Positions 39,295 to 41,691 of a stretch of DNA of 64,000 bases are shown here, one piece after another. Below the pieces are notes generated by a model. That model worked only from the letters and a program-made list of their open reading frames with translations, had not been told where the DNA came from and searched no databases. The translations under genes were made by a program, and so were the position numbers. Location of the stretch: the sequence record PQ657772.1; one strand, written 5' to 3'. Positions within the stretch are counted from its first letter, which is position 1, and the number at the start of each line of letters is the position of its first letter. This DNA comes from Escherichia phage EC.P1.

Positions 39295-41691
39295 TCATCC
39301 TCCTAAATTGCTGTTTTGTAATGAAATCAAAAATGTATCATGAACGTAGTTTTCGAATTCATGTGCAAAGAATCCAAATTCAACTCCTGTGATTTCAAAC
39401 TCAACACCAACCATCTTACCATGTTCATTGTTCTGAAGTAAAGTGTTAAAGAATGCTTCACCCTTTCCTGGTGCACAGTATGCAACTGGAATGATTGGCA
39501 TGAATTTCTTTTTAACTCCATCTTCTTCGTATGGGTGATTCATGAAGCGAGGAACAGTATCTAGCATCTCATCAGAAATTCCAGGTATAGCATCTACATA
39601 CAAACCACGGTTCTGTAAATCAGTTGGGTCTTTCACAAGGTTAGTTGTGTCTTCGCCAATTGCTGCAAAAATATTTTGACGCAAGCCAAATATTTCACCG
39701 AGTGTTCCGTTATCAATTTGCGTGTAACTTCTTGGATTCTTAGAAACTGACACCAATGAACCTGCTGGTAAAACTTCACGGTATAATATATCATACTGCA
39801 AGTTACCTTGGTTGTCAAGTGCTGACATTACTTTATAGTTTCCCATTACCATTCTAAATTTTCCATCAGGTATAGTTGCACCAGTTTGGTTTATGATATT
39901 TTCCCTAAGTACTTTTTTAATATCACTCAACGTAGTGTAAGTATAGTTCTGACTCAAAAAGTTTTCTTTTAATAAAATACGTGGTACTTTTTGTAACCCG
40001 TATCTATCATCTGATTGGCGATGGAAAGCTTGATTTGTAAATGATGGTGTACTAATACACTTAAACCATTCACGTTCAAAATAAACAGAAGGTACAATAT
40101 GTGCACTTAAGTAGTTTTGTCCAAAACCACGTACAATTTTAAGTTTAAATAACTTGGACGCAACACCACCTTCAGTGTCATATGCTTTGATGTTGAATTC
40201 TAAATTTATATCATCATTTGCACTGAAATCTAAACTTTTTGCATATGCCGTCCCGACCAAGAACCCATCTGCGGTGAGGTCCAAACCATATTTGCGAATA
40301 TCATCAGGTCCACCATCTAATACATAAGATACCTGATTAGTACTGGTAGTTTGTATTTGTGGATAAGTACTGTGACCGAAATATTCACCCACATGAATAC
40401 TACCTAAATCACTATCAGTTGTGAAGTCTATTGAGTTTCCTTCTTCTGCGTTCACTAGAACACGGAACATCTTCTCTTCACCTATAATATTCTCACCTAA
40501 GCTTGAATCATAATATCCTAAATCAATCCAATCTGAACTTTTAAACACTGGCTTTGTTTCACCTAGATCATATTCACCAGAGATTACATATGGATATACA
40601 ACGTTATCTTTCAACTGATACAAATGATTAGGTAAAGGTTTATCACCATCAGCGTATATACCATCTACATTGTCTGGACATACCCACATTTGATATGCTT
40701 TGAAACGTTGGTTTATAGCGAAGCGGTCAGTGTCATAACTATATGTACTCAAAATATCAACAATTTCAACTTTGAAATATGCATCACATGCATCAGAGTC
40801 ATATAGGAATGTTTGCAGAAATTGTCCATTTGGGTTGAAAACCAATCCTGAATCTAGTAACTCCCCAGAGCTAGTTTGAATATTAACCTTAATTTCTTTA
40901 TTAATACCAAATACAGGCCATATATTATCAATAGGACGTAGGATTGCATAATCATCAGTAATGTGGCGAGCAGGAACTTCTGCTGGGGTCATATCGAGTA
41001 GACGATACGCTGGATAAAATACTCTAGGAGATAGGTCAGTTGATGTATCAGTTCCTAAAATAAATGGACGACGGCGACCAAATCCCTGTACAAATAAAGT
41101 ACTGTTGGAACCGTATTCAATATCGCCAATACAATATAATTTGTCATCATCACCGATTTCGATTCCAGGAGTAACCCACACTTCCTGACTATCATATTCA
41201 ATTGTTACTTCATTTGAACCAATTTCACCACTAGGGGAAATGTTACCATAGTACATAACATTTACTGCTTGAAGATAAAAGTTAATCTGTTCAGAGTTGT
41301 TAAATGTACCATCATCTTTACAATGCAATTTAATAAAATAAACATCTTCGGTATTAGTGCTTGCCGATAGATCAAATTGAGTTTTATCAATTTTACATTT
41401 GTGCTTACCATTAATCAACTTGTTACCAGTAATACCTGATGATATAGGTGTGAGATTAGATTCATCATTTCCAACATACACTGCGTAGTGATCTTCTGGT
41501 TGAAATACTGCATCAGAACTGTCCAAACCCTGAATAGTTAGAATCATCTCTAAGTATTCGTTTTCATTAAGTATATAACTATCATCCGTTGTGGTTTCTT
41601 TGTTGATACTCAAACGCACAAGAATGTCTTGTCCTTCTTGTATATATCGAGCATCGGCTTTTATATCCCATCTAGGGGTAAAAGTTGTCAT
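39295..41691 (-). CDS. large hypothetical protein (about 798 aa)
   Basis: Track ORF 39295..41718; start moved to Met with GGAG 9 nt upstream; no motif recognised. Confidence 0.6.
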   Translation of the reverse strand: MTTFTPRWDIKADARYIQEGQDILVRLSINKETTTDDSYILNENEYLEMILTIQGLDSSDAVFQPEDHYAVYVGNDESNLTPISSGITGNKLINGKHKCKIDKTQFDLSASTNTEDVYFIKLHCKDDGTFNNSEQINFYLQAVNVMYYGNISPSGEIGSNEVTIEYDSQEVWVTPGIEIGDDDKLYCIGDIEYGSNSTLFVQGFGRRRPFILGTDTSTDLSPRVFYPAYRLLDMTPAEVPARHITDDYAILRPIDNIWPVFGINKEIKVNIQTSSGELLDSGLVFNPNGQFLQTFLYDSDACDAYFKVEIVDILSTYSYDTDRFAINQRFKAYQMWVCPDNVDGIYADGDKPLPNHLYQLKDNVVYPYVISGEYDLGETKPVFKSSDWIDLGYYDSSLGENIIGEEKMFRVLVNAEEGNSIDFTTDSDLGSIHVGEYFGHSTYPQIQTTSTNQVSYVLDGGPDDIRKYGLDLTADGFLVGTAYAKSLDFSANDDINLEFNIKAYDTEGGVASKLFKLKIVRGFGQNYLSAHIVPSVYFEREWFKCISTPSFTNQAFHRQSDDRYGLQKVPRILLKENFLSQNYTYTTLSDIKKVLRENIINQTGATIPDGKFRMVMGNYKVMSALDNQGNLQYDILYREVLPAGSLVSVSKNPRSYTQIDNGTLGEIFGLRQNIFAAIGEDTTNLVKDPTDLQNRGLYVDAIPGISDEMLDTVPRFMNHPYEEDGVKKKFMPIIPVAYCAPGKGEAFFNTLLQNNEHGKMVGVEFEITGVEFGFFAHEFENYVHDTFLISLQNSNLGG

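Follow-up and report, generated by a model that had tools for sequence, protein, structure and literature searches.

A virion structural protein encoded beside the topoisomerase II genes of Escherichia phage EC.P1: a predicted array of Ig-like domains joined to a 2H-like domain without the catalytic motifs

What is the function of a 798-amino-acid (aa) protein whose gene lies directly downstream of the topoisomerase genes of a jumbo phage? The question is raised by Escherichia phage EC.P1 (sequence record PQ657772.1), of which a stretch of 64,000 nucleotides (nt), hereafter the window, was analyzed; all coordinates count from its first letter. As shown below, the protein is a member of PHROG 13911, a populous family of jumbo-phage virion proteins that is functionally uncharacterized. 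We lean towards the view that it is a late-expressed structural component of the virion of RaK2-like (Asteriusvirus-type) jumbo myophages, that is, a peripheral appendage and not a replication protein. The gene and its translation signal are located as follows.

39295..41691, minus strand: virion structural protein gene, 798 aa, stop codon at 39295-39297 (open reading frame; PHROG 13911, E = 0; identity to an annotated protein; mass spectrometry of virions for orthologues)
41699..41702, minus strand: Shine-Dalgarno sequence GGAG, 7 nt before the ATG at 41691 (direct sequence reading)

The window was 99.8% nucleotide-identical to the jumbo coliphage Escherichia phage fEgEco12 and likewise to other jumbo coliphages of approximately 350-385 kb, and was approximately 77% identical to the 121Q/PBECO4/phAPEC6 group. 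The 798-aa protein was 100% identical to g420 of fEgEco12, which is annotated as "virion structural protein", and residues 1-797 matched positions 1-788 of the 789-position profile of PHROG 13911, likewise named "virion structural protein", with an E-value of 0 and 1367 bits. Its orthologues are phAPEC6 gp158c, RaK2 ORF160, GAP32_321, and CBB_326. A tblastn search gave matches in 72 phage records, covering phages of Escherichia, Klebsiella (RaK2), Salmonella, Cronobacter (GAP32), Pectobacterium (CBB), Erwinia, Serratia, Yersinia, and Xanthomonas, and a match in one Vibrio phage was weak. Furthermore, 95 homologue clusters at 38-100% identity were found in a large protein database. The first-pass annotation, made from the sequence alone, had called the protein an "orphan"; the PHROG match, the 72 phage records, the 95 clusters, and the identity to g420 refute this description. 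That annotation had also stated that no motif (P-loop, GHKL, or HNH) was recognizable, and this holds at the sequence level. No match beyond noise was obtained for the whole protein or either half in Pfam (to E ≤ 10) or NCBIfam, and no PDB sequence was matched by phmmer with the single sequence or by a 44-sequence family profile at E ≤ 10. A confident match to a well-characterized family was to count against the orphan status: the match to PHROG 13911 is confident, but the family itself lacks a characterized function.

Orthologues or homologues of the 798-aa protein are physically present in the purified virions of four phages. Nine unique peptides of phAPEC6 gp158c (79.6% identical, 90.3 kDa), corresponding to 17.1% coverage, were obtained by virion mass spectrometry (MS), and both GAP32_321 and RaK2 ORF160 were MS-positive in virions (Table S1 of the CBB paper). 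In the case of Atu_ph07, 3 peptides of the distant homologue gp329 were recorded by virion MS in the supplement, the main text being silent on gp329. The fEgEco12 paper contains no proteomics for g420, and the main text of the RaK2 paper does not mention ORF160, promoters, or sigma factors. Two peptides of phAPEC6 gp159c, which is orthologous to the topoisomerase II medium/small subunit encoded at 41780-43192(-), were also observed in virions.

The stop-free frame on the minus strand spans 39295..41718, and the chance of approximately 800 open codons is roughly 1e-26 by our own estimate (35% guanine plus cytosine (GC), approximately 7% of random codons being stops). The 798-aa reading from the ATG at 41691 was preferred because three lines of evidence agree: the GGAG sequence, the N-termini of 43 homologues, which line up from the Met encoded by this ATG, and the GenBank annotations deposited, every one of which uses it as the start. 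An 807-aa reading from the ATG at 41718 was rejected; this codon has no Shine-Dalgarno sequence and lies 12 nt after a promoter-like TATAAATA, and the homologues start at M10 of that reading. The uninterrupted reading frame directly downstream of the topoisomerase genes, as first described, was thus confirmed, and the topoisomerase II subunits were assigned by Pfam. It had been ranked as the largest after NrdA; however, NrdA (58102..60420) has 772 aa, and the 798-aa frame is itself the largest in the window.

Is the gene transcribed together with the topoisomerase genes? The features that bear on this point are listed below.

41730..41737, minus strand: TATAAATA, a late-promoter motif of the T4 type, found once in 64 kb, with its last base 38 nt upstream of the ATG
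41744..41773, minus strand: terminator-like hairpin (13-bp stem, T-rich tail) that separates the late-promoter motif from the topoisomerase II medium-subunit gene
41780..43192, minus strand: topoisomerase II medium subunit, the upstream neighbor (PF00521, E 1e-63)
43243..45207, minus strand: topoisomerase II large subunit (GyrB/Toprim/HATPase_c)

With a free energy of −24 kcal/mol, the predicted fold of 41725-41785(-) was more stable than that of every one of 200 shuffled sequences (z = −5.1). A hairpin is found at the equivalent place in phAPEC6, RaK2, and CBB. The late-promoter motif is identical in phAPEC6, and reads GTAAATA in RaK2 and CATAAATA in CBB. In the CBB paper, ATAAATA was described as a putative late promoter upstream of structural genes in CBB and GAP32, and CBB was reported to encode a gp55-like sigma factor. 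Because a hairpin and a late-type motif precede the 798-aa gene, this layout is kept in the relatives, and ATAAATA has been published for structural genes, we infer that the gene is probably a late gene transcribed apart from the topoisomerase genes. Upstream of the large-subunit topoisomerase gene lies a promoter of a different type, a σ70-like one that reads TTGAGA-18-TACAAT and has an extended TG (45243-45272(-)). Between the large- and medium-subunit genes, at 43193-43242(-), a GC-rich hairpin (ggggaacatggtgttcccc, followed by tttt) was observed.

(A/G)TAAATA was also found 30-45 nt upstream of other virion-protein operons in the window, namely a KTSC gene leading the structural genes for 523-aa and 264-aa proteins, and g427. 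The two virion-protein genes led by the KTSC gene are located at 46101-47672 and 45307-46101, and g427 is an orthologue of the virion proteins CBB_334 and phAPEC6 gp150c. (A/G)TAAATA or TAAATA occurs at 48236-48243(-), 35772-35778(-), 13672-13678(-), and 61098-61103(-), 30-45 nt before several start codons. Judged by their sequence and spacing, these scattered motifs are candidate late promoters across what appears to be a "replication" region. The single copy of TATAAATA on both strands of the window compares with 8.5 ± 3.3 expected copies, and all 100 shuffled sequences contained at least one. ATAAATA is present in 11 copies on the coding (minus) strand and in none on the plus strand. The depletion of TATAAATA and the strand bias of ATAAATA suggest selection against stray late promoters, as in T4.

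A structure model of the protein was obtained with AlphaFold2 from a 44-sequence alignment (predicted local distance difference test (pLDDT), 87.4; predicted template modeling score (pTM), 0.50). The pTM is only 0.50 because the chain is flexible and multidomain, as expected. Four all-beta domains (approximately 1-170, 171-325, 326-422, and 423-526) are followed by an alpha/beta domain (527-798).

41182..41691, minus strand: D1, residues 1-170, all-beta sandwich, the least conserved domain (pLDDT 87; mean identity to homologues 38%)
40717..41181, minus strand: D2, residues 171-325, beta sandwich (AlphaFold2; Foldseek matches to cadherin/Ig arrays)
40426..40716, minus strand: D3, residues 326-422, beta sandwich (AlphaFold2; Foldseek)
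40114..40425, minus strand: D4, residues 423-526, immunoglobulin (Ig)-like (AlphaFold2; invariant columns), the counterpart of He_PIG in distant homologues
39298..40113, minus strand: C-terminal alpha/beta domain, residues 527-798, bilobed 2H-phosphoesterase-like fold without the two HxT/S motifs

A Foldseek search of the PDB with the full model matched cadherin, protocadherin, and bacterial Ig-array proteins with E-values down to 3e-9; the TM scores were low because the beta domains are flexibly arranged. Tandem Ig-like domains, the hallmark of Hoc-like decoration proteins, are thus found in the 798-aa protein by Foldseek and, in the form of He_PIG, in its distant homologues. Profile positions approximately 390-525 correspond in the alignment to a stretch of the distant homologue P0102 that was identified as He_PIG by Pfam, and from these matching coordinates D4 is probably the equivalent of the He_PIG domain. 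D4 contains a nearly invariant LGxIHVGEYFGH at residues 429-440 (40372-40407(-)), in which H433 is invariant and H440 is conserved in at least 90% of the sequences. The predicted pI of the protein is 4.6 (acidic). No beta-helix, triple beta-spiral, coiled coil, or known fiber domain appeared in the Pfam and PHROG results or in the AlphaFold2 monomer model. As to length variation within the family, four orthologues from Erwinia/Serratia-type phages (P0045, P0060, P0086, and P0089) have 1009-1025 aa and carry an in-frame insertion of approximately 215 aa near residue 247, in D2, and the homologues P0100 and P0101 do not have D1. No Pfam domain was found in the insertion in the two orthologues scanned (P0045 and P0086), and the shortened homologues were likewise without Pfam domains.

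The fold of the C-terminal domain matches Usb1, LigT, CPDase, Acb1, the ns2 protein of mouse hepatitis virus (MHV), and the phosphodiesterase (PDE) domain of rotavirus VP3; ASCC1 was a further structural match. In a Foldseek search of BFVD, the top matches were family members, namely those of K64-1 and Atu_ph07 (the latter named "extracellular serine proteinase"), along with uncultured-phage proteins labeled "Ig"; next, with E-values of 3e-6 to 9e-4, came 2'-5' RNA ligases and cyclic phosphodiesterases of phages. In our own comparison with the E. coli ThpR sequence, the order of the secondary structure elements was that of LigT, and the model shows the bilobed alpha+beta fold with internal pseudo-twofold symmetry by which the 2H superfamily is recognized. 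The strands expected to bear the HxT/S motifs read PRILLKEN (570-577) and PIIPVAY (732-738), the equivalence of these positions to those of the 2H enzymes being set by secondary-structure order and not by a residue-level structural alignment. In the 44 close homologues, the motif positions are occupied as follows.

Position 571: R, K, S, N, or Y
Position 573: L or M
Position 733: I, V, C, G, M, or L
Position 735: P, V, or I

In the alignable distant homologues, the residues at these four positions are K/R, L/V/Y, A/V/C, and P/V, respectively. None of the 44 close homologues and none of the alignable distant ones has His at 571 or 733, and the two HxT/S motifs are thus missing. No Pfam family of the 2H clan matched the protein even at E ≤ 10, and hhalign of the C-terminal profile, a thin one, against four LigT/ThpR-type sequences from PDB alignments gave a probability of 0.1%. 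Since no sequence or profile similarity was obtained, the link to the 2H superfamily is one of fold. The first-pass annotation had called for a structure-based search, and its outcome is twofold: the modeled C-terminal domain confidently resembles the well-characterized 2H phosphoesterase fold, but the catalytic motifs are absent. As modeled, the domain shares the 2H fold, lacks the motif pair that defines the enzyme superfamily, and is predicted to be catalytically dead. The homologue alignment places many invariant charged or polar residues in this domain, among them E539, R540, R558, D561, K575, E576, N577, D626, Y633, R638, E639, R715, and H719.

In D1, identity to the query is 38%, and it climbs to 56-58% in D4 and the C-terminal domain. 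An exhaustive profile search yielded 84 representatives, and outside the close clade only profile positions approximately 390-780, corresponding to D4 and the 2H-like domain, are common to them. The variable N-terminal parts of the relatives contain He_PIG arrays, CBM_5_12, cadherin-like, Big_9, or YHYH domains, or S8 (subtilase) or sedolisin peptidases. N-terminal modules such as He_PIG, CBM_5_12, cadherin-like domains, and peptidases are typical of externally exposed proteins. This pattern would fit a conserved docking module (He_PIG plus 2H-like) combined with exchangeable exposed modules. PHROG "baseplate wedge subunit" matches in the distant homologue P0143 were discounted as a sign of a baseplate role; they fall in a YHYH-type region (812-863) outside the shared module.

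In some distant relatives, the gene borders fiber-type genes. In a 94-kb contig, the gene of the homologue P0142 closes a fiber-type block (encoding a 4701-aa fiber-like protein, a pectate-lyase beta-helix protein, and one that is C1q-like), and a MazG/DnaE-fragment/clamp-loader block follows immediately. The homologue P0175 is followed by a Mtd_N tail-fiber-like gene, another distant homologue precedes the gene of a 2826-aa giant protein, and Atu_ph07 gp329 adjoins the virion protein gp328 and the tail fiber gp327 in a tail-fiber cluster. On the other hand, the order topoisomerase II subunits, 798-aa gene, ORF of approximately 100 aa, and DnaE fragment is the same in fEgEco12, RaK2, CBB, and phAPEC6, and in distant metagenomic relatives down to approximately 25% identity the gene is still linked to those of the DnaE fragment, GroES, and the clamp loader. 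One distant relative also keeps IF3, ClpS, KTSC, and a fused topoisomerase II beside the homologue. The 798-aa gene sits at a boundary between structural and replication genes; among the coliphages of this lineage, the topoisomerase genes are found on the structural side of it. The downstream neighbors in the window are listed below.

38982..39293, minus strand: 103-aa ORF, starting 1 nt after the stop codon of the 798-aa gene (ORF list)
38504..39022, minus strand: stand-alone DnaE fragment, 172 aa, DNA polymerase III alpha NTPase domain (PF07733)

The 103-aa ORF overlaps the DnaE-fragment gene by 41 nt and is kept in RaK2 (ORF161), CBB (CBB_327), and phAPEC6 (gp157c); a Pfam search with its product gave no match. 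It may be co-transcribed with the 798-aa gene, perhaps from the late promoter of the latter. Nearly all ORFs of the window are on the minus strand, and the GC skew is negative in every 2-kb bin; both would fit a single long block of jumbo-phage genes that share one orientation. In RaK2, a Hef-like homing endonuclease gene (L002 2796-4505) is inserted between the two topoisomerase II subunit genes, and it is absent from the window, CBB, and phAPEC6.

How might such a protein be built into the particle? In the arrangement we favor, the conserved C-terminal module, composed of the He_PIG-type Ig domain and the dead 2H-like domain, would dock onto the particle. The less conserved, swappable N-terminal domains would project outward as a flexible, probably non-trimeric, Hoc-style arm, which may contact host surface polymers or otherwise decorate the particle. 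Because of the gene neighborhoods of the distant relatives and the modest peptide coverage, an appendage of low or medium copy number on the tail, baseplate, or collar appears preferable to a capsid-wide decoration. On the phAPEC6 particle, the collar and distal tail bear elongated proteins, and there are also rings of "hairy" fibers and capsid fibers, all without an assigned gene, and the 798-aa protein is a candidate for one of its lower-copy elements.

Several points weigh against this arrangement. The gene of the close relatives sits amid replication genes, and we have no explanation for why the genes of the DnaE fragment, GroES, and the clamp loader stay syntenic with it. The invariant charged residues of the 2H-like domain could mark a ligand site and not a docking surface. 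The position on the particle, be it tail, collar, baseplate, capsid, or interior, is reached by inference only, and the role of the C-terminus as the anchor would follow from conservation alone. Most tail fibers have their conserved anchor at the N-terminus. The virion proteome of CBB did not include CBB_326. In addition, the phAPEC6 virion preparations also contained the topoisomerase small subunit, a RecA-like protein, and SSB, and because these were co-detected, MS detection alone is no proof of a structural role.

The same proteome bears on the idea that the protein is an internal head or ejected protein, packaged with the DNA, possibly in the inner body of phAPEC6/121Q, and entering the host with the genome. 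The DNA-associated proteins found in phAPEC6 virions include the neighboring topoisomerase subunit, the inner-body proteins of this phage are without assignment, the gene of the close relatives lies in a replication cluster outside the main structural block, and the protein is acidic. Nevertheless, we consider an internal location fairly unlikely: the Ig/cadherin-like tandem and the He_PIG, CBM5/12, and secreted-type protease modules of the homologues are features of exposed proteins, and the distant homologues adjoin tail-fiber or tailspike-like genes. Alternatively, the protein might be a capsid decoration fiber, its C-terminal domain sitting at the hexamer centers, where phAPEC6 has fibers without an assigned gene. 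T4 Hoc consists of an N-terminal Ig string and a C-terminal binding domain, and the layout of the 798-aa protein is the same. The coverage of 17%, however, is far below the 65-75% of the abundant phAPEC6 virion proteins, which argues against 270 or more copies, and neither Hoc nor any PDB chain was found to be similar in sequence. Moreover, the capsid of phiKp24, a RaK2-like phage not confirmed as a carrier of an orthologue, is built from the major capsid protein alone and needs no decoration protein; RaK2 itself carries the MS-positive ORF160. A Hoc-like capsid role is therefore judged decidedly unlikely.

The 2H-like domain raises the question of an enzymatic role. The protein could be an active 2H phosphodiesterase carried by the virion and directed at cyclic-nucleotide immune signals, 2',3'-cyclic phosphates, or phosphodiester-linked surface polymers, in the manner of Acb1 or the 2H modules of polyvalent proteins. 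The fold matches to Usb1, LigT, CPDase, Acb1, MHV ns2, and rotavirus VP3 PDE and the many invariant polar residues of the domain would agree with this, and 2H domains have been proposed in virion-packaged polyvalent proteins (PMC5512222). In contrast, neither HxT/S motif is kept in any of the 44 close homologues or in the alignable distant ones, where R/K-x-L and I/V/A-x-P/V stand in their place, and there is no profile similarity to LigT-type enzymes, so an active enzyme seems very improbable. There is a slim chance that the dead 2H-like domain is a virion-borne ligand-binding pseudoenzyme or a cryptically active enzyme recognizing a phosphodiester-containing host surface polymer or a nucleotide. 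If so, the PHROG 13911 family would be a previously unrecognized class of receptor-binding/effector modules in RaK2-like, Atu_ph07-like, and marine jumbo phages, and the ancient association of its genes with the DnaE-fragment/clamp-loader block would then be a hint of an additional role inside the cell. The first-pass annotation had expected an rII-like or replication accessory gene at this position, while noting that ATPase motifs like those of rIIA were lacking. That doubt was justified: no GHKL (HATPase_c) or Walker ATPase motif was found by Pfam or NCBIfam, and the model consists of all-beta domains and the 2H-like domain. An accessory protein working with the topoisomerase would be in keeping with the adjoining topoisomerase II genes and with the DnaE-fragment/clamp-loader synteny kept over large distances. 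However, there is no ATPase or nucleic-acid enzyme motif, the terminator and late-type promoter set the gene apart from the topoisomerase genes, the orthologues are found in virions, and the architecture is an Ig-like array; the expectation of a replication accessory was not borne out, and such a role is hardly credible.

RaK2-like jumbo phages are candidates for phage therapy, and most of their particle proteins are without an assigned role. This analysis removes a false lead, that of an orphan near the topoisomerase genes, and gives the first domain description of the family: an Ig-like array, a He_PIG domain, and a catalytically dead 2H-like fold, as predicted. It also defines a conserved He_PIG plus 2H-like module onto which phages appear to graft differing display or enzyme domains. 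If this module docks onto the particle, it would be a handle for engineering or for assigning the phAPEC6/121Q densities (fibers and elongated collar or tail decorations). In our literature searches, no 2H fold was reported in a phage structural protein and no cryo-EM assignment of the PHROG 13911 family was found; as far as these searches went, the reuse of the 2H fold as a structural module in a phage particle appears not to have been described before. We regard it as a moderate structural curiosity and not as a new kind of system.

Compared with the members of PHROG 13911 (g420, gp158c, ORF160, GAP32_321, and CBB_326), the 798-aa protein has full-length homology at 100% to 45% identity and the same length, and the genes likewise sit after the topoisomerase II genes; nothing sets it apart. 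Before the present analysis, this family was without an assigned role, domain description, or particle location. Phage tail fibers and tailspikes have trimeric fibrous folds, whereas none is found here, and the sole pointer to them is the adjacency of fiber-like genes in distant relatives. In the 2H superfamily (LigT/ThpR, Usb1, CPDase, the AKAP18 central domain, Acb1, coronavirus ns2, and rotavirus VP3 PDE), the catalytic HxT/S motifs are present, whereas both are absent here; the domain of the 798-aa protein is also approximately 90 residues larger and is part of a virion protein, in which it is joined to Ig-like domains. The 2H-containing "polyvalent proteins" packaged in virions (Iyer et al. 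2017, PMC5512222) are similar in being large and multidomain, in occurring in virions, and in having a 2H-type fold. In the 798-aa protein, however, no MuF-type or other effector domain was found, the 2H-like domain is predicted to be dead, and the other domains are adhesin-type beta sandwiches. In contrast to T4 Hoc, it shows no sequence similarity to that protein, is twice as long, ends in a 2H-like domain, and is unlikely to be located on the capsid. Nonetheless, it shares with Hoc and the Ig-domain accessory proteins of the class of Fraser et al. 2006 the tandem Ig-like domains, a variable N-terminal display part, and a conserved C-terminal module.

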